From positions 1-20,699 of IMG/VR virus record IMGVR_UViG_2663763232_000003: DNA of 20,699 bases; one strand, 5' to 3'. The notes beneath the pieces were generated by a model. It made no database searches. It was not told where the DNA came from and was given only the letters and a program-made list of their open reading frames with translations. Position numbers and translations under genes: made by a program. Source of the stretch: a virus (lineage: Duplodnaviria > Heunggongvirae > Uroviricota > Caudoviricetes). Positions 2,317 through 13,757 of the stretch are shown here, one piece after another. Every line of letters begins with the position of its first letter. Position 1 is the first letter of the stretch.

Positions 2317-2391
2317 GTCCTCTTAGTTAAATGGATATAACGAGCCCCTCCTAAGGGCTAATTGCAGGTTCGATTCCTGCAGGGGACACCA
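2317..2391 (+). tRNA. argW: tRNA-Arg (anticodon CCU)
   Basis: 75-nt sequence GTCCTCTTAGTTAAATGGATATAACGAGCCCCTCCTAAGGGCTAATTGCAGGTTCGATTCCTGCAGGGGACACCA: acceptor stem GTCCTCT/AGGGGAC, T-arm GGTTCGATTCC, anticodon loop CUCCUAA, encoded 3' CCA. Matches the E. coli argW sequence from memory. Confidence 0.93.
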
Positions 2392-2552
2392 TTTATCAGT
2401 TCGCTCCCATCCGTACCAGTCCGCAAAATCCCCTGAATATCAAGCCTTCCGTATATTCACGGTTCGTCATGGTTCGCGTCAGATCGTTGACAGCCGCACT
2501 CCATGACGGGTAAAAAGTGGATAAAATAATTTTACCCACCGGATTTTTACCC

Positions 2553-3710
2553 ATGCTCACCGTTAAGCAGATTGAAGCAGCAAAGCCGAAAGAAAAACCA
2601 TACCGCCTTCTCGATGGTAATGGCCTGTACCTTTATGTCCCTGTATCCGGGAAAAAGGTATGGCAGCTTCGCTACAAGATTGACGGTAAGGAGAAAATCC
2701 TGACCGTAGGAAAATATCCGCTAATGACTTTGCAGGAGGCAAGAGATAAAGCATGGACCGCGAGGAAAGACATCTCGGTTGGCATCGATCCGGTAAAAGC
2801 GAAAAAGGCTTCGTCTAACAACAATTCCTTTAGTGCAATTTACAAGGAATGGTACGAACACAAGAAGCAAGTCTGGTCAGTAGGGTATGCGACTGAACTT
2901 GCAAAAATGTTTGATGACGACATTTTACCCATCATCGGCGGCCTTGAAATTCAGGATATTGAGCCGATGCAACTACTGGAAGTAATCCGCAGATTTGAAG
3001 ATCGCGGTGCAATGGAGCGAGCCAACAAAGCACGTAGAAGATGCGGCGAGGTTTTCCGTTACGCTATTGTCACTGGTAGGGCTAAATATAACCCGGCACC
3101 TGACCTTGCTGACGCCATGAAAGGATACCGCAAGAAGAACTTCCCGTTTCTTCCTGCAGACCAGATCCCGGCATTCAACAAAGCACTGGCAACATTTTCA
3201 GGAAGCATCGTATCGCTCATTGCGACCAAAGTTTTACGCTACACAGCCCTAAGAACGAAAGAGCTTCGTTCCATGCTATGGAAGAACGTCGATTTTGAAA
3301 ACAGGATTATCACCATCGACGCCAGTGTGATGAAGGGACGCAAAATTCATGTGGTCCCGATGTCAGACCAGGTGGTTGAACTTCTCACTACGCTAAGTTC
3401 AATCACCAAACCAGTCTCAGAGTTTGTTTTTGCCGGGCGCAACGATAAGAAGAAGCCAATCTGCGAGAACGCGGTATTGCTTGTGATCAAACAAATCGGC
3501 TATGAAGGTCTGGAAAGCGGTCACGGATTCAGGCATGAATTCAGCACGATTATGAACGAGCACGAATGGCCTGCTGACGCTATTGAAGTGCAACTGGCAC
3601 ATGCCAACGGCGGATCTGTGCGCGGTATTTACAACCATGCTCAGTATCTCGATAAGCGCAGAGAAATGATGCAGTGGTGGGCGGATTGGATTGATGAAAA
3701 GGTGGAGTGA
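2553..3710 (+). CDS. int: Phage tyrosine integrase (P4/Sf6/IntS type)
   Basis: The ORF track starts this ORF at a GTG at 2517; I call the ATG at 2553 (MLTVKQIEAAKP...), which gives 385 aa, the length of E. coli IntS. C-terminal catalytic signature HGFRHEF ... RGIYNHAQY (H-x-x-R and catalytic Tyr). Location next to the tRNA 3' end is typical. Neither candidate start has a strong ribosome-binding site, so the start is uncertain. Confidence 0.88.
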   Translation: MLTVKQIEAAKPKEKPYRLLDGNGLYLYVPVSGKKVWQLRYKIDGKEKILTVGKYPLMTLQEARDKAWTARKDISVGIDPVKAKKASSNNNSFSAIYKEWYEHKKQVWSVGYATELAKMFDDDILPIIGGLEIQDIEPMQLLEVIRRFEDRGAMERANKARRRCGEVFRYAIVTGRAKYNPAPDLADAMKGYRKKNFPFLPADQIPAFNKALATFSGSIVSLIATKVLRYTALRTKELRSMLWKNVDFENRIITIDASVMKGRKIHVVPMSDQVVELLTTLSSITKPVSEFVFAGRNDKKKPICENAVLLVIKQIGYEGLESGHGFRHEFSTIMNEHEWPADAIEVQLAHANGGSVRGIYNHAQYLDKRREMMQWWADWIDEKVE

Positions 3711-3740
3711 TCCACCTTAACCACAATTGAATAGCACAAA

Positions 3741-3770
3741 GCCTTGCAATTCAGTGCAAAGCTTTTTGTG
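3741..3770 (+). terminator. Putative intrinsic terminator between the convergent int and tailspike genes
   Basis: Imperfect hairpin GCCTTGCA-ATTCAG-TGCAAAGC (7 of 8 bp paired) followed by TTTTTGTG on the plus strand, with an A-rich tract on the other side. Lies in the 223-bp convergent intergenic region. Confidence 0.4.
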
Positions 3771-3933
3771 TCTCAGTTTTGCCCCATCAACCACAGCAAG
3801 TCATCGATCGATTAAGATTAAGTAAAGCTATCTGGAAACAGATCTTTTTCTGTGTTCTTATTATTATGTAAATATAACCCCACTAATGTGAGGTTATTCT
3901 ACAGAATATGTTAATTACCCAACCATCGAAATA

Positions 3934-5838
3934 TCATGCGGATGGCGCATAAATTCCGTTAAAGTTAATTGAAATATCGTAATGTTGCATGTTGGCAGGA
4001 GTAATCAGTAAATCTCTAAGTGTAACAACCACCCAGGGATTATCAGTGTTTGCTTTATCACAATAAACTCTTGTCGTTGTGGTTGACCCGGCATATACAG
4101 ATACATTTGCCGCAGATAATGTTCCGTCACTAGTGGCGTAATATGTTGCTGATGGCATTGTTGCAGTGCGGCCATGCGTTATTTCCACGATGCCAGCACT
4201 CACCACAGAAACAGAGATATTATTTCTAATCCACTCTGGGACACCAGAGCCTGAAGGCGGTCTTCCATAACGAATGACTCCTGTTTTTGTATTAACAATA
4301 AAAGAGACGTCGGCATACACCGTGATTTTTAAAGTGAATGCATTGCCAACACGAAGTGGCTCTGCGTAGGCCCTGGCACCTTCTATACCCATAGTGCGAT
4401 TGACATATGCTGTAGCATAAAACCAGTTTTCTGCATTGTCTGCAATTTCTACAGAAAAATATTCCCCATCAGCAGAAACAACTAATTTATGGGCATTGGA
4501 AATTTTCCATTCACTGTTTACTTCTTTAGATAAAAGAACCCATTTATCGTTATCATTGCTGTATTTAATAGTACCAGCGACTAATTTTGATCTTGTCCAA
4601 GGTGGGGCAAAATTTGAATATTGCGCTAAATCGGTTGAGGTTTTATTACTCGCCCCTCCTTTGACTATAGACCATAACCCCCTAGCACCTTCTCGCCCCA
4701 TCGTATTGTAACCACGTTGTGTATAATGGACGCCTCCATCGTAAGTGCCAATATTGCCATCACCTTTTAAAAATGAAGGACAACCATCAAATACTGTCAC
4801 AGCATCAGTTTTGTTATTACAAACCCATCTTTGTGCATTTTGAATAGCAGCCCATGATTCTTCCGTTCGGTTCCCAGGGCAACCAACGGTAAAATTACCA
4901 AATAAATCAAAATTAATATCGGCTTTCAGGTCATCTATCAAGGCTATAAAGCGGTCTCTATAAGAATTGTATGTGGTTCCTGATGACATATCCGTTTCAC
5001 CCTGATGGAACAATACATACGTTTTACCGACAGGCAGACCTGCGGCAACCATCGCCTTTTTAGCTGATACCACGGCATTCACCAACAGCGAGTAGTATGT
5101 TGTCCCTTTTGATAGATGTGCTATCGACATTGCGCCACGGCCACAATGTATCTCCACTGAACCGCGCCCACTAAGGCGATACCATTCATTCTCAAATTCT
5201 CCCCAGGCATGTCCTGATGATGCAACTCCTGAAGAACTAACCACATTCTGAATTATTGGCTTTATAGTTCCATCTTTAAAATCGTACATTAACGATTTAG
5301 GAAGAGGATCTGGAAAACCTGATGTATCACCTGATAAAATAGCCTCGCCTGCGCTATTTGATTGCCCATACGTAACAAACACATCATATACATTTGGCGA
5401 CTCAAGGTATTCTGTTGCAATAACATTACTTGCTATTTTTGATGCGGTTACTCCAGATATCATTACTGTACTATTAGTTTCTGACAACCTGCTTTCTAAT
5501 TGATCTGGATCATACTTCAATACGTTTGGAAAATAGAATTGCTGCGAACCATACGCATCATAAACAGCCATAGAATGGCCTTGCACAGTTACGAATTTGG
5601 CAATCTGTCCGTTATATACAGGGTAACCAGCAGCGTTAATGATGATTGGTTGAGAAACAGGAACGTGAGAGCCATCTTCGTTCTCCACATAAGTCTGAAT
5701 CTGGTTTTCAGGATTTACAGGGTCAGTATCAATTTTACCGATATAAATTTTGCCATTAGCTACGGCTTTAAAGGAACGAGCCATAGTGAAGAGTTGCGAA
5801 GGCATTCCAATTACAACATTTGGGGTGATTTCCGTCAT
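3934..5838 (-). CDS. Tailspike protein: P22-type N-terminal head-binding domain fused to an SGNH/SASA-like acetylesterase receptor module
   Basis: The N-terminus [59 protein letters not shown]...[17 protein letters not shown]...NVLKYDPDQ is closely similar to the P22 gp9 head-binding domain. AGGA ribosome-binding site 8 nt before the ATG at 5838. The ORF track extends the frame to 5931, adding 31 residues (see findings). Downstream motifs [17 protein letters not shown] and DGGVHY fit the esterase family. Last gene of the late operon. Confidence 0.85.
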
Positions 5839-6029
5839 GGGCGCAATCCTATTAGATTGACTCGATAAAGAAGAAAATGGAGTTAATGCTACAAATGACG
5901 CTATTGATTTGAAAAATGATCTTCTGTTCATTTAAGACACTCTTTAAGCATGACATTTGGTAGTAATGTAAGAAAAAATTACAATCAACTCCATAGCTAT
6001 TTAATTTTTAAAAGTGATTCACACCTGCA

Positions 6030-8423
6030 TTACCCTGACAACACATCAGACTTAGCACCCTGAGTCAGGGCGTTAATGGCCTTTTGCGCCTGCTGCATGG
6101 CTTTCTCAAATGCTGTTGACCCGCGTGGGGTATTTGCCATTCGGAGCATTGCATTTCTGAATGGTTCGCTCTCATAGGCGCGCGTAAGAAGTCCGTAGCT
6201 TACTGCTGCGCCAGTTGTCGCCGGGTTCATTGCCGTCCCATACCCAATAATGAACGGGATAGTTTGCTGCCCTGTGGGTGTTGTTACTGCAGCTTTTGCA
6301 GCCTGCTGCGTGGATTGCAGGTAGTTTTTTAATCCTTTCAGATAAGCGGCTTCCTGACCTTTAAATGTGATGCCAGTCTGGTTTTGCAGGATGTTAAGCT
6401 GTCGAAGGAACTGGTCAGGGGAGCCACCTGATTTCTCCATCGCCTTTCCAATGATGCCATTGCGCATTTGCGCCCTGCCAACACGACCAACTGAGTTATA
6501 CAGCGTCTTAATTTCCGATTTGTTCTTGCTGAATAGCATGTTGTTGACAACTTCCGGCGTCAGGTCGCCTTTCATGAGAACATTCTTCAGCCTGGTATTC
6601 TTTAGTTTCGCCGCTTCGTCAGCGTAGACGGCATTGGCCTGCTGATATTTACGGAGAGTATCGTTGCCAAGATTCTGACCAATGGCACCATTGATATCGT
6701 CGGTCATTGCCTTGTAAACGCGCTGAATGGCAGCATCGGAACGGTTTGGTAACACTGGTCGCTCCCCCTTCACGTCCATTCTGAACTGGCTGCGCAGATC
6801 GCTTAATTGCTTCAAATCCAGATTTACCGGACCATCAGGACCAGCATTGCGAACAAGCTCATCACGATAGGACTGAAGTTTTGAAATAGTCTCGTTATCA
6901 GCAACCTTACCAAGCTTCTGCAGGTTAGATATTTCTGTATCAATCTGCTGAATTGCTCTTGCAGGCTGAATGTTTATTCCTGCCATAGCATTCTGAACCT
7001 GCTCAAGACGGTTCCCTGCAGCACGACGAATTCCTGATGTTTTCGCTTTAAGGCTGTCAATAACAACAGCTGGATCATACTCACCGAATTTATCAGCAAA
7101 TCTCTGCACCAACTGGCTTCTCGCTTCCTGTTGCGTTGCTCTCATTCCGCTTGTGCCAGCCAGGGGGATATTTTCCGCTGTCGTCTGCGCCATTTTTCCG
7201 ACGCGGGAAGTGGGTTGTAACAGGTCTGTGGTGTGCAGAGGAACTCCTTCACGTTCTGCAAATCTGATAGCCTGTTGCGCTTCTGGTGCTATCGAACCAC
7301 GAACACCACGATAAGCAGCACCTAATCCACGTCCGGCAGCGTTAATAGCACCGCCAGCCAGCACACCAACGCCTAAATCGGTGGCGAGTGCTTCCGCATC
7401 ATCTTTCGCACTGTTTGCAGCAAGTGATCCAACTGCGTTTTCTGCGAGAAGGCGAGTTGCCCCCTGAGCAATTCGACCAGCAAGTGTTGGTGCCTGTGCT
7501 GCCGCTCTCTCAACGCCAGCAGGAGTGAGGTAAGGCAATGCTTCAGCAAATACCCTTCCCTCTGTCGTTTGTGGAGTCAGCGCGCCTTGCTGAAGGCCAA
7601 AGTCCTGCTCTAATCCCTGCGTTGTTACTCGTGGTGCTGGTTGATATGTACCATCGCCAATGCCGAGTTTACCGCCAGCCCAAGCCGCCGCGCTTGTTAC
7701 AGCATCAGTGAGTTCAGCAGGTATGTTCGCTACGTTGATTCCTGCCTGTAGTAAGCCGCGCCCGGTTTCAGCAAGTCCATTACCAAGGTCAGACATTATT
7801 CCGCCTTGCTGCTGAACAGGTTTCGGTGCGACAGAACTTACGGGTTGAGGTGGCTGCTGACTGGCTGCCTGCTGCTCAATCTGAGCAAATGGATTATTTG
7901 GGTCTGACTGCACGCCTGATGCCGATACTTGTTCGGATGACTGTGCTTCCAGTTGTGCAAACGGGTTGTTAGGGTCTTGCTGAGGATGTACCTTTGCAGA
8001 GGTGGCGCGCTGTTCGACTGTTGAGTCTGTCACCGGGTCACCCGCCCATTGAGCAAAGCGATCATCAACGTAACCGCGGCCTTCAGGTCCTGGCGTATAT
8101 TCACCACGCTTTGCCTTCATAACGTTGCCGGGACCGTCGTGATAAGCCTGAAGAGCGTCACGCCAGTTACCAAACTGCTGGTACATCTTTGCCAGATAGC
8201 GCGCGCCAGCGTCAGCCTGATATTCGGGGTTTTGCATTTGCTCATCGGTATAACCCATATCACGCCATGTCCCAGGCATGACCTGAGTCAATCCTACAGC
8301 CCCGGCGGAGCTTACTGCGGCAGGGTTGTAAGAAGACTCCTTGGCACCCAGTGCAGTCATCAACCCTTCTGGCACACCGTAACGTGCGCCAGCCTGCTCT
8401 AACAAATCACGGTAATTAGCCAT
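6030..8423 (-). CDS. gp16-like ejection (DNA-transfer) protein with N-terminal lytic transglycosylase domain
   Basis: 797-aa ORF in the position of P22 gene 16. N-terminal ~100 aa carry soluble lytic transglycosylase motifs (GAKESSYNPAAVSSAGAVGLTQVMPGTW ... AYHDGPGNV). Gln/Pro-rich linker with a duplicated DPNNPFAQ(L/I)E segment. Its start is immediately adjacent to the gp20 stop. Confidence 0.8.
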   Translation of the reverse strand: MANYRDLLEQAGARYGVPEGLMTALGAKESSYNPAAVSSAGAVGLTQVMPGTWRDMGYTDEQMQNPEYQADAGARYLAKMYQQFGNWRDALQAYHDGPGNVMKAKRGEYTPGPEGRGYVDDRFAQWAGDPVTDSTVEQRATSAKVHPQQDPNNPFAQLEAQSSEQVSASGVQSDPNNPFAQIEQQAASQQPPQPVSSVAPKPVQQQGGIMSDLGNGLAETGRGLLQAGINVANIPAELTDAVTSAAAWAGGKLGIGDGTYQPAPRVTTQGLEQDFGLQQGALTPQTTEGRVFAEALPYLTPAGVERAAAQAPTLAGRIAQGATRLLAENAVGSLAANSAKDDAEALATDLGVGVLAGGAINAAGRGLGAAYRGVRGSIAPEAQQAIRFAEREGVPLHTTDLLQPTSRVGKMAQTTAENIPLAGTSGMRATQQEARSQLVQRFADKFGEYDPAVVIDSLKAKTSGIRRAAGNRLEQVQNAMAGINIQPARAIQQIDTEISNLQKLGKVADNETISKLQSYRDELVRNAGPDGPVNLDLKQLSDLRSQFRMDVKGERPVLPNRSDAAIQRVYKAMTDDINGAIGQNLGNDTLRKYQQANAVYADEAAKLKNTRLKNVLMKGDLTPEVVNNMLFSKNKSEIKTLYNSVGRVGRAQMRNGIIGKAMEKSGGSPDQFLRQLNILQNQTGITFKGQEAAYLKGLKNYLQSTQQAAKAAVTTPTGQQTIPFIIGYGTAMNPATTGAAVSYGLLTRAYESEPFRNAMLRMANTPRGSTAFEKAMQQAQKAINALTQGAKSDVLSG

Positions 8424-9755
8424 TTACTGCCCCAAAGATGGAAGATATCCGTAGCGATTAATGAAGTCGATTGACAGCTCGGGGTGTTGCTTCAGGTAAT
8501 CTATAGAAGCCTGAGGCGCTTCCACTCGCTTGATACCGTTTTGCTGAACGTACTTACCAACCGCCTCATTACGCTTCTGGTTGAGCGTGTTCAGGATGAC
8601 GCCAGCGTTGCGACGAAAGGACTCCTCGCTCTGCGAGTTCTGCAGCGAACCAACAGCCTGGTCGAGCTTTTTGCCCTCGGCATCAGAAAGTGCGCCCATG
8701 CCTCGCATGGCCTGAACCGCTGTCAGGTATGCTTGGGATTTAAAGGTATCAAGTCGTGCCTGAGTGTCTGCAGCCTGTGAGCCTGGAACGTTGGGGATTA
8801 CTCCACGTAAGCCTGTAATGCTCTTAAGTGAAGGAGAACTAACGATATCGTTCAGAGTGAACATGCTGGTTGTGAGGGTGTTGATGCCGTCTTTGTAGCC
8901 ATCATTTAGCGCTTGCTGCTTCTGCTGCAACTGCTGGTTGTTGGCTGCTATGCGGCTCTGTATTTCCTGGCGCTTCAGGTCGTTAGTTTCTGCTGATAGC
9001 ATCCGGTCAAGGCGCTTATTTTCGTTGTTAATGCGGTTTGTTTCTGCGTCTAGATTAATGCGCTGCTGACCTAAATTCGCCTGGATATCTTGTCCGCGCA
9101 TTGTGATTGCCTGATTCCGAGCGGCGGTTTGCGAATCCAGATCCTGACCGCGCATGGTAACCTGGCGACCCTGCATTTTATCCTGTAGGTCAAAGTATTT
9201 TTCTGGCCCGAGACTGTTCATCCCCAGGTGATCGACAAATTCGCCGAACTGCCGCGGGTTCTGTTGGTACATCTGAGCGACGTCCTGAGGATTAACGCCA
9301 ACACGAGCTAACTCACCGGCGTTGTTTTGCAGCCATGATTGCATTGCTTCTGGAGACGATGACGCAAGGCGTGCGCCAGCCGCTAAGGTGCCGATAGAAT
9401 TACGCTGATCTTCATCAATGAATCCCATGCCTTTACGAACGGATTCAATCTGTTCTGGATATTGAGTAGCCAACTGACGCAAAGCACCGCGATCACCAGA
9501 CGCATAAGCATTAGCGTATGCCTGCTGAAATTCTTTCTGCCGCTGAGCCTGCTTTTCCTGCTGAAACACCCCCGCAATACCTGAAAGGCCTTGCAAAGCA
9601 GTCAGCCCAACATTGTTAGCGCCTGAACGCTCAATATCATTGTTCTGCCTGATAAGCTGAAGCGTATTGCCGATGTCATTTACGCTCGGAGCGTTTGAGT
9701 TGACGCCGCCGATACCAGCCAACAATCCGCCGTTTGTTCCTTGCCAAGTAGCCAT
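8424..9755 (-). CDS. gp20-like ejection (DNA-transfer) protein
   Basis: 443-aa ORF, Gln/Asn-rich and predicted helical, in the position and of the approximate size of P22 gene 20 (471 aa as I recall). Confidence 0.75.
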   Translation of the reverse strand: MATWQGTNGGLLAGIGGVNSNAPSVNDIGNTLQLIRQNNDIERSGANNVGLTALQGLSGIAGVFQQEKQAQRQKEFQQAYANAYASGDRGALRQLATQYPEQIESVRKGMGFIDEDQRNSIGTLAAGARLASSSPEAMQSWLQNNAGELARVGVNPQDVAQMYQQNPRQFGEFVDHLGMNSLGPEKYFDLQDKMQGRQVTMRGQDLDSQTAARNQAITMRGQDIQANLGQQRINLDAETNRINNENKRLDRMLSAETNDLKRQEIQSRIAANNQQLQQKQQALNDGYKDGINTLTTSMFTLNDIVSSPSLKSITGLRGVIPNVPGSQAADTQARLDTFKSQAYLTAVQAMRGMGALSDAEGKKLDQAVGSLQNSQSEESFRRNAGVILNTLNQKRNEAVGKYVQQNGIKRVEAPQASIDYLKQHPELSIDFINRYGYLPSLGQ

Positions 9756-9764
9756 GATTACCCC

Positions 9765-10457
9765 TTAAAACAACGAGCCAAGCAATCCGATACCAGCACC
9801 AATGCCAGCGCCCCAAGGCGTTGATGTTCCCAAAAGGCTGGCAAGACCTGCACCGGCAATCGCACCAGACGTGCCACCGCTAATTGCAATCTGAAGACTT
9901 GATGGTTTATTGGCATTAGCAGCGGCAAGTGCTGCGCTTTGCTGTGCAATGCTGCTCATGTTGTTGGCGTATGTCTGCCCAGCGTTTGCCTGACCTTGCA
10001 GCGCACCAAGCCCAACGTTTGCCAGATTGTTGTAATTGCTCATCTGATTTGATAACCAAGACTGACCGAGTGTCGGCGCGATCGTAGCCAGTTGATTGCT
10101 TGTGGCTGTCGAACCAAGTCCACCCGTCGCCTCCGCAGCAGCAAGACTCTGGTAACGAGCCTGACCTGCAAGGTCTTTATACTGCTGAGAGTTGTAATAC
10201 TGATTAAGTGCCTGCCCCTGACCTTCTAAACTGGAAAGGTTCTGAAGCTGGTTAACATACTGCTCCGCAAGCGGCGTGAACGGAGCAAGCTTTTTCATGA
10301 TCGTCTGCCACTGCTGATTTTGCAGGTCTGCGGCATACTTCTGAGCTTCTGCTGCATACTTTGCGCTTTTATCAGAGCTGCCACCTTTCCCGCCTTTTTC
10401 AGGGCAATAAGGTTCCTCGCCGCGCAGTTTTCTGCCCAGCTTAAATGCATATAACAT
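9765..10457 (-). CDS. gp7-like ejection protein
   Basis: 230-aa ORF (P22 gp7 is about 229 aa) with Gly/Ala-rich hydrophobic C-terminus ...GAGIGAGIGLLGSLF typical of this internal virion protein; syntenic position. Confidence 0.75.
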   Translation of the reverse strand: MLYAFKLGRKLRGEEPYCPEKGGKGGSSDKSAKYAAEAQKYAADLQNQQWQTIMKKLAPFTPLAEQYVNQLQNLSSLEGQGQALNQYYNSQQYKDLAGQARYQSLAAAEATGGLGSTATSNQLATIAPTLGQSWLSNQMSNYNNLANVGLGALQGQANAGQTYANNMSSIAQQSAALAAANANKPSSLQIAISGGTSGAIAGAGLASLLGTSTPWGAGIGAGIGLLGSLF

Positions 10458-13295: not shown

Positions 13296-13757
13296 TCACG
13301 TACTCGGATCATCTTTCTCGATGTAAAACCGATTCCACGTAAACGCGCTTTTGTTACCACTACCGCGAGGCATGTCATTTCGCCGCTCAAGTGGTGGTAT
13401 TTTGGTTAAAGCGATGCAGATTGTCTGATATGCGCTGTCAGCAGCGGTAAGGAGAGCATCTGACGGCTGAATGACGTTATCCATGCACACTTGCACAGCG
13501 AGTTTCAAAGCGACGCCATCATTTGCCCATGCAGGGATACCTGAATCATCGTCAGGTAACGGCATGATGCCGTTTTCTGTATCAGCAAACTGATATCCAA
13601 GCTCGATACCTTTCGCCTGCCATGCTGCCATCATGTCTTCGAGATCATTAATGGCATCTTCTATTGCCTGAGGGTCGGCATCTGTCAACGTGGCATTGGA
13701 ATACAGCCCGGCTTTTCGTAAAGCCTTAAGAACGAGATCACCCTTCGTTTTCGCCAT
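13296..13757 (-). CDS. gp4-like head-to-tail adaptor protein
   Basis: 153-aa ORF; N-terminus MAKTKGDLVLKALRKAGLYSNATLTDADPQAIEDAINDLEDMMAAW resembles P22 gp4 as I recall it, and the protein ends with a PRGSGN segment. AAGGCGGAAG ribosome-binding site upstream. Confidence 0.8.
   Translation of the reverse strand: MAKTKGDLVLKALRKAGLYSNATLTDADPQAIEDAINDLEDMMAAWQAKGIELGYQFADTENGIMPLPDDDSGIPAWANDGVALKLAVQVCMDNVIQPSDALLTAADSAYQTICIALTKIPPLERRNDMPRGSGNKSAFTWNRFYIEKDDPST

Follow-up and report, generated by a model that had tools for sequence, protein, structure and literature searches.

How short-tailed P22-like phages pass the peptidoglycan is not settled. In P22 itself, gp16 travels inside the virion, leaves it before the DNA and forms the part of the channel that lies in the cytoplasmic membrane. 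Here we examine an N-terminal enzyme domain in a protein encoded at the gene-16 position of a related prophage. The DNA analysed is a stretch of 20,699 nucleotides (IMG/VR record IMGVR_UViG_2663763232_000003, positions 1 to 20,699; hereafter the window), which holds the left end of a P22-like prophage of Escherichia coli (Lederbergvirus, Sf6/IME10-type). An earlier note, made from the letters alone, had taken the product of 797 amino acids (aa) for an ejection protein with a built-in lytic transglycosylase domain, and this interpretation is supported by the sequence comparisons and structural models given below. With a probability of roughly three in four, we read the protein as the gp16 of a P22-like prophage carrying a catalytically intact transglycosylase module that would serve as an accessory wall cutter at DNA entry. 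The architecture was already known and is not a discovery, because it is catalogued in public annotation. The exchange of the module, its association with the C-terminal half of gp20 and a wider pattern of paired motifs go beyond the earlier note.

A family-1 lytic transglycosylase domain at the N-terminus

The Pfam SLT model (PF01464) matches aa 7-110 of the protein with E=2.8e-25 and a score of 88.6 bits, against a cut-off of 21.3, so that the absence of any SLT hit, which the earlier note had named as grounds for giving up its reading, does not apply. All three motifs of the family are in place, namely E-S (E29-S30), G-L-x-Q (G44-L45-T46-Q47) and A-Y-N/H-x-G (A93-Y94-H95-D96-G97), the last two within the stretches GLTQVMPGTW (aa 44-53) and AYHDGPG (aa 93-99). 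They do fall in the first ~100 residues, as had been noticed, but the domain itself extends to aa ~125-130. An alignment of 58 sequences, consisting of the window protein and 57 diverse SLT homologues at 28-48% identity, has seven invariant columns (E29, S30, G44, Q47, A90, Y94 and G97), and the window protein keeps all seven. E29-S30 falls on the catalytic E-S of E. coli Slt70 (...RQESAWNP...; sequence match E=6e-11). A phmmer search also matched gp16 of phage T7 (7eyb_I/7k5c, E=7e-4), and in a pairwise alignment aa 2-119 pair with T7 gp16 aa 10-139, placing E29 on T7 E37.

An AlphaFold2 model of aa 1-210, built from the alignment of 58 diverse sequences and confident for the SLT domain only, has a lysozyme-like all-alpha fold with a predicted local distance difference test score (pLDDT) of 88-98 over aa 1-~125. 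Foldseek matched it to Slt70 (1qte, E=2e-6) and to two chains of T7 gp16, 7k5c_B from the periplasmic tunnel of the ejectosome and 9jyy_I from the virion core, all with probability 1.0. The top 50 PDB matches are all lytic transglycosylases or T7 gp16, the best being Slt70, Pseudomonas Slt, LtgA, MltC/E/F/D and T7 gp16. Motifs and model together confirm the N-terminal module as a family-1 lytic transglycosylase whose predicted catalytic residues are intact. Enzymes of this family break MurNAc-GlcNAc bonds and leave 1,6-anhydro-MurNAc. Its best solved match in both sequence and fold is the catalytic domain of Slt70 (PDB 1qsa, 1qte), which shares the three motifs. Slt70, however, is an enzyme of the bacterial periplasm and includes a large superhelical U-domain, whereas here the catalytic domain by itself occupies the N-terminus of a predicted virion protein.

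Some phages use lytic transglycosylases as endolysins, and the SLT domain gives a weak match to phrog_669 'endolysin'; the enzyme might accordingly act late, as an aid to lysis, or on neighbouring cells instead of at entry. We regard this as highly improbable, since the domain forms part of an ejection protein encoded within the virion-assembly operon, neither a signal sequence nor a holin-linked context was found around it, and related phages possess a separate lysis cassette (for example S, R and Rz of HK620).

A P22 gp16-family body at the gene-16 position

The gene runs on the minus strand, which corrects the first reading, from an ATG at 8423 to a stop codon at 6032-6030, and its first base directly follows the stop codon of gp20. 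The reading frame and the P22-like neighbours (gp7 and gp20 before it, the tailspike after it; Table 1) confirm the assignment of a 797-aa protein to the gene-16 position. The length of about 609 aa that the earlier note gave for P22 gp16 proved correct, at 609 aa. Membership of the P22 gp16 family is borne out by phrog_770 'DNA transfer protein', which spans aa 108-795 with E=5e-239. Proteins 99% identical to ours carry precomputed Pfam matches to both SLT and PF26808 (Phage_P22_gp16); for the 797-aa protein itself, PF26808 was not among the matches from the local Pfam copy.

From aa ~205 onward the protein is 97% identical to Sf6 gp13, and the body shares 33% identity with P22 gp16 over 98% of its length. 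A sequence search of the PDB with the body returned no solved relative. A full-length AlphaFold2 model, built from 16 close homologues, was poor (mean pLDDT 49) and was left out of the fold comparison. Within it aa 440-700 are helical, with 10-residue block means mostly at pLDDT 57-85; the earlier description of a helical body is therefore matched by modelled helices, with this low-confidence model as its sole basis.

Could so long an open reading frame (ORF) result from two genes being joined by an assembly error or a frameshift? Evident chimaeras do occur among database entries, for instance a NinG joined to a gp16 body. The same 797-aa ORF, however, recurs in IME10, which has been isolated as a phage, and in numerous complete genomes, its cluster at 90% identity comprises 1,295 sequences, and orthologues of 790-815 aa are found in Cronobacter, Klebsiella and Kosakonia. 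Recurrence in IME10, in many complete genomes and in independent assemblies rules a fusion artefact out, and we give it practically no weight.

Distribution and annotation of the SLT-bearing form

The SLT domain is found in a minority of P22-like phages and prophages, though a sizeable one. Pfam finds it in none of P22 gp16 (609 aa), Sf6 gp13 (665 aa) and HK620 gp16 (722 aa), and the NCBIfam SLT model is likewise absent from P22 gp16 and Sf6 gp13. Of 72 P22-like IMG/VR contigs, for which a near-identical gp7 was the sole selection criterion, 14 encode a gp16 with the SLT domain, and in this set it is attached to bodies of at least three kinds, the Sf6, HK620-like and Sf101 types. The contigs and the three reference phages rule out an SLT domain universal to the gp16 family, a case that the earlier note had said would make the feature unremarkable.

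On the DNA level, 70 of 5,426 complete E. coli genomes contain the 618-bp module and 1,167 of the 5,426 have a gp7 homologue; the module is at least 99% identical in 67 of the 70. The SLT domain and linker are also 100% identical, over 183 aligned residues of a 206-residue query, in phages Sf101, IME10, Huey, Dewey, APC_JM3.2 and phiKp_30. These figures bear on whether the domain is a decayed and inactive remnant spread by recombination, as its patchy distribution and the full viability of close relatives that lack it might suggest. Besides the near-identity of the module among E. coli genomes, the domain retains all invariant residues in a Klebsiella aerogenes prophage (83% identity) and in other phage genera (58-67%), and it scores far above the Pfam cut-off. 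A decayed remnant is, in our view, very improbable.

The domain has been recorded before. The GenBank record of Sf101 labels the gene 'transglycosylase', and NCBI names the proteins of E. coli, Cronobacter, Klebsiella and Kosakonia 'lytic transglycosylase domain-containing protein'. No discussion of the SLT variant was found in the literature examined, which excludes Casjens & Thuman-Commike 2011 and Casjens & Grose 2016; the genome papers of Sf101, Kapi1 and E212 do not discuss the domain, and a 2017 review gives gp4 as the only virion-associated lysin of P22 (PMC5380687).

Annotation is uneven in two further respects. NCBI also gives the name 'lytic transglycosylase domain-containing protein' to Sf6-type gp16 proteins of 665 aa that lack the domain. 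Pfam finds no SLT in Sf6 gp13 or in VSe13 gp13 (2722-4719 of the VSe13 locus), and the name was probably carried over from SLT-bearing relatives. In the RefSeq record of IME10 (NC_019501), the 797-aa gene (5001-7389) and everything up to the integrase are unannotated.

An exchanged cassette of gp20 and gp16 segments

The earlier note had described the gp16 homologue as enlarged by the SLT domain. The domain is certainly present, but comparison with Sf6 indicates that the N-terminal module was exchanged and not simply added. DNA similarity to Sf6, at 95%, ends at 9219 and returns at 7811, while similarity to Sf101, at 98%, continues through to 7806. The exchanged block thus consists of gp20 aa ~179-443, the C-terminal 60% of that protein, together with gp16 aa 1-~205, and the Sf6 counterpart of its gp16 segment is a short unrelated N-terminus (MAKAWKDV...).

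At all loci that we fetched, the SLT domain and this type of gp20 C-terminus go together. Every SLT-bearing locus has it at 97% identity or more, and no SLT-less locus does, the match there being at most 45% identical or a short fragment. In the K. aerogenes prophage the arrangement is the same with all parts diverged (gp20 C-terminal part 73%, SLT 83%, body 77%), and in a Cronobacter prophage the cassette is nearly identical and the body 76% identical.

Recent work on P22 gives the edge of this block a structural meaning. The window gp20 is 43% identical to P22 gp20 over aa 1-242, and aa ~179 maps to P22 aa ~183. In situ structures of P22 gp20 place a domain boundary (PP1/PP2) at 185/186, with residues 186-255 forming the barrel through the peptidoglycan and residues 256-435 forming a plinth against the cytoplasmic membrane, a proposed template for gp16; the plinth was modelled jointly with P22 gp16 residues 1-205, and a 12:6 combination was used in AlphaFold modelling of P22 (bioRxiv 10.64898/2026.09.03.749273). 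Since the breakpoint lies near P22 185/186, the cassette would comprise the wall-crossing and gp16-facing half of gp20 plus the front of gp16. Such co-inheritance fits co-adaptation of the two segments.

Paired aromatic motifs around the SLT domain

Between the SLT domain and the body lies a linker predicted, with low confidence (pLDDT about 50-65), to be disordered or flexible. Its composition and two copies of a peptide, DPNNPFAQLE and DPNNPFAQIE, agree with the Gln/Pro-rich linker and duplicated DPNNPFAQ(L/I)E unit that the earlier note had pointed out. The copies are spaced 24 residues apart, and an equally good 8-mer pair arose in none of 500 shuffles of the non-SLT residues of the window protein. 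They differ at 9 of 30 bases by manual count and by one amino acid (L/I). A difference of this size rules out a recent DNA duplication as the origin of the repeat.

Both copies are kept in the Cronobacter, Klebsiella and Kosakonia homologues, where the 14-aa spacer varies. Among representatives less than 50% identical, a motif of the same kind usually supplies the highest-scoring internal 8-mer pair beyond the SLT core, and its usual place is the extreme N-terminus and ~20 residues after the SLT domain; examples are ANVFDQFD/GNVFDQFG, MANMFAEF/AGNMFAEF and PFAQFDNP/PFAQFDKP. Other representatives carry both copies ahead of the SLT domain (GPWEKYQ/GPWSKYQ), and the window lineage, having no N-terminal leader, has both after it. 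In most of the diverged gp16-like proteins inspected, paired motifs of the form [N/G]-x-[F/W]-x-x-[F/Y/L/I] flank the SLT domain. Such motifs, sometimes in triplicate, were noted in the window protein, nine further proteins and three loci, and the copies are more alike within one protein than between proteins. Some single pairs are statistically weak, the observed score being reached in 12, 136 and 41 of 500 shuffles. SLT-gp16 proteins whose N-terminus is P22-like showed no comparable pair, nor did SLT-less proteins, and a DPNNPF-type motif is absent from T7 gp16. We consider the paired motifs around the SLT domain of gp16-like proteins a real, if unexplained, pattern.

Some SLT-gp16 variants (886 aa and 880 aa) have an extra insert of ~90 residues after the second motif (…GNIDIHNRPVVKNPDGSISTVRSMS…). 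A Pfam scan of the insert in the 886-aa variant gave no match.

What might the motifs do? One tentative idea, which we hold to be rather doubtful, is that the DPNNPFAQxE peptides are docking motifs and that gp20 PP2-PP3 and the gp16 SLT domain and linker make up a co-adapted channel unit for crossing the peptidoglycan. If this were true, two motifs per gp16 would let 6 gp16 subunits engage 12 gp20 subunits, matching the 12:6 combination modelled for P22 and placing the enzyme at the wall. When gp20 C-terminal types were set against motif types in the distant genera, identity was 24-29% throughout.

Alternatively, the N-terminal module could be mainly architectural. The SLT domain and the peptides would dock gp16 on the gp20 plinth, and cleavage would be secondary or dispensable; in T7, likewise, the gp15 tunnel bears 'wings' and a 'molecular tape' formed by the N-terminal part of gp16. 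At the loci compared here, the SLT domain and the C-terminal half of gp20 (the PP2-PP3 equivalents) are indeed co-inherited at every locus examined, including the K. aerogenes prophage at 73-83%, and the paired motifs are held at the peptide level despite the 9 differing bases and recur in diverged gp16-like proteins. In T7, moreover, gp16 residues 157-228 stabilise the gp15 hexamer (PMC8954989). A mainly architectural module nevertheless seems unlikely to us. Conservation of every catalytic and substrate-groove residue speaks for an enzymatic function that has been kept; an SLT-less gp16 with a 97% identical body works with other gp20 types; and T7 gp16 has no such motif.

Comparison with T7 gp16 and with relatives at the same position

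The closest mechanistic parallel is T7 gp16 (internal virion protein D; PDB 7k5c, 7eyb, 9jyy), likewise the product of the last gene of a three-gene ejectosome operon, in which an N-terminal family-1 lytic transglycosylase domain is followed by a non-globular segment. The earlier note had drawn this comparison in principle; for the SLT domain it holds as homology and goes beyond analogy, as the paired catalytic glutamates indicate. The likeness ends there. Past the SLT domain no similarity is detectable, T7-type PDB and PHROG matches stop at aa ~112-189, the ~1,100-aa C-terminal region of T7 gp16 has no counterpart, and the body itself gave no match to T7 gp16 (1,318 aa, compared with 797 aa here). 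The partners differ as well, T7 gp15 being unrelated in sequence to gp20, a dodecamer in P22. The 797-aa protein may thus resemble T7 gp16 in its working, yet it is not a member of the T7 gp16 family, because the C-terminal region is not homologous.

Nearer relatives share the position and differ in how the protein is assembled. P22 gp16, Sf6 gp13 and HK620 gp16 have the same gene position and the same body family, but short unrelated N-terminal modules (MAKAWKDV... in Sf6 and HK620, MKVTANGK... in P22). In IME10 the gene is present in full, 97% identical in nucleotides, and likewise encodes 797 aa. In the 911-aa protein of Sf101, the identical SLT domain and linker sit on another body; its hinge is P22-like, and the remainder is unrelated. 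At the same position, downstream of their gp7-like and gp20-like genes, Murrayvirus IME_EC2, Skarprettervirus Skarpretter and Kosakonia phage Kc259 encode proteins of ~1,000 aa whose N-terminal SLT domain is 58-67% identical to ours and which carry paired aromatic motifs. Unlike the window protein, these have a leader of 30-40 aa before the SLT domain, which holds the first motif copy, and bodies that are much longer and largely unrelated.

Genomic context

Coordinates of the features are collected in Table 1. The window holds a complete virion-assembly operon on the minus strand, with small and large terminase, portal, scaffold, coat, gp4 and gp10 onward, and the late genes follow the order gp4-gp10-gp26-gp14-gp7-gp20-gp16-tailspike, the needle having an Sf6-type knob. 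The region is 95-97% identical to phage IME10 and to prophages of a dozen complete E. coli genomes. The tRNA-Arg(CCT) gene adjoining the integrase places the prophage at argW.

Table 1. Features of the window, with positions counted from its first nucleotide
Feature	Positions	Strand	Basis or remark
Host genes: mlaA/vacJ-like lipoprotein and yfdC-like transporter			before the tRNA
tRNA-Arg(CCT)	2317-2391		
Integrase	2517-3710		directly after tRNA-Arg(CCT)
Tailspike	3934-5931	-	downstream of the gp16-position gene
gp16-position gene: N-terminal SLT, linker and P22-gp16-family body, 797 aa	6030..8423	-	single ORF
Sf6-type gp16 body, aa 210-797	6033..7796	-	opens at conserved hinge ...ETGRGLLQAGINVANIP...
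Gln/Ser/Pro-rich linker, aa 131-209	7797..8033	-	20% Gln, 13% Ser, 13% Pro
Motif copy 2, DPNNPFAQIE, aa 174-183	7875..7904	-	
Motif copy 1, DPNNPFAQLE, aa 150-159	7947..7976	-	
Lytic transglycosylase domain (SLT, family 1 / GH23-type), aa 1-130	8034..8423	-	Pfam PF01464 and model
Codon of predicted catalytic Glu29	8337..8339	-	E-S motif alignments
Mosaic cassette: gp20 aa ~179-443 and gp16 aa 1-~205	7806..9219	-	DNA similarity breakpoints
gp20 homologue, 443 aa, periplasmic channel protein	8424..9755	-	Pfam Inj_translocase, E=3.8e-68
gp7 homologue, 230 aa, outer-membrane/extracellular channel protein	9765..10457	-	Pfam P22_gp7, E=1.3e-133
gp4 homologue	13296-13757		Pfam-based

Several observations concern the neighbourhood. 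The interval between integrase and tailspike has no O-antigen modification genes, where Sf6 has oac and the Cronobacter relative gtrABC. In the tailspike, a P22-type head-binding domain (aa 32-144) is joined to a carbohydrate esterase domain of the SASA/SGNH type (aa 182-414); the latter replaces the beta-helix glycosidase, which suggests a receptor enzyme that deacetylates instead of depolymerising. The longest tailspike ORF begins 31 codons (5839-5931, minus strand) ahead of the canonical MTEITPNVV start at nucleotide 5838, and this extension, which resembles a twin-arginine signal (MNRRSFFKS…), is probably untranslated. In a related K. aerogenes prophage, a homing-endonuclease gene of the HNH/NUMOD4 type lies between the gp10 and needle genes (2058-2603 of that locus).

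A putative role at DNA entry

From the homology with T7 gp16 and the architecture of the P22 channel, we infer that the protein is packaged, ejected and active on the cell wall. It would be carried in the virion and expelled through the tail before the DNA. In the periplasm the SLT domain could then cut glycan strands beside the passage of the gp20 barrel through the sacculus, the flexible linker tethering the enzyme to the body, while the body would assemble beneath the gp20 plinth and complete the channel across the cytoplasmic membrane. The activity is probably accessory, making genome entry faster or possible where the wall is dense or highly cross-linked, as in stationary phase or at low temperature. 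Local wall cutting at entry is likely to be conditionally helpful, as shown for T7 gp16. The patchy distribution points to such a conditionally useful accessory, and a conditional role would explain why close relatives manage without the SLT domain.

Several points weigh against this wall-cutting role. The literature examined holds no enzymatic, virion-proteomic or infection data on the 797-aa protein or its phage homologues. P22 and Sf6 infect efficiently without an SLT domain, so the domain is not essential to the mechanism. It could even be redundant, since a gp4 homologue is present and gp4 is the virion lysin of P22 (PMC5380687). The link between the gp20 C-terminus and the SLT domain could alternatively be plain physical adjacency, as the block contains no conserved internal sequence for recombination.

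Altogether, the feature is an ordinary one, catalogued and mechanistically familiar, to which the make-up of the cassette and the motif pairs add a little. Its use lies in what it offers for the question of wall passage. The edge of the cassette, at the reported domain boundary of P22 gp20, suggests the portions of gp20 and gp16 that have to fit each other. The Sf6-type (665 aa) and IME10-type (797 aa) gp16 proteins, because their bodies are 97% identical, form a natural with/without pair for the contribution of a virion-borne transglycosylase to entry.

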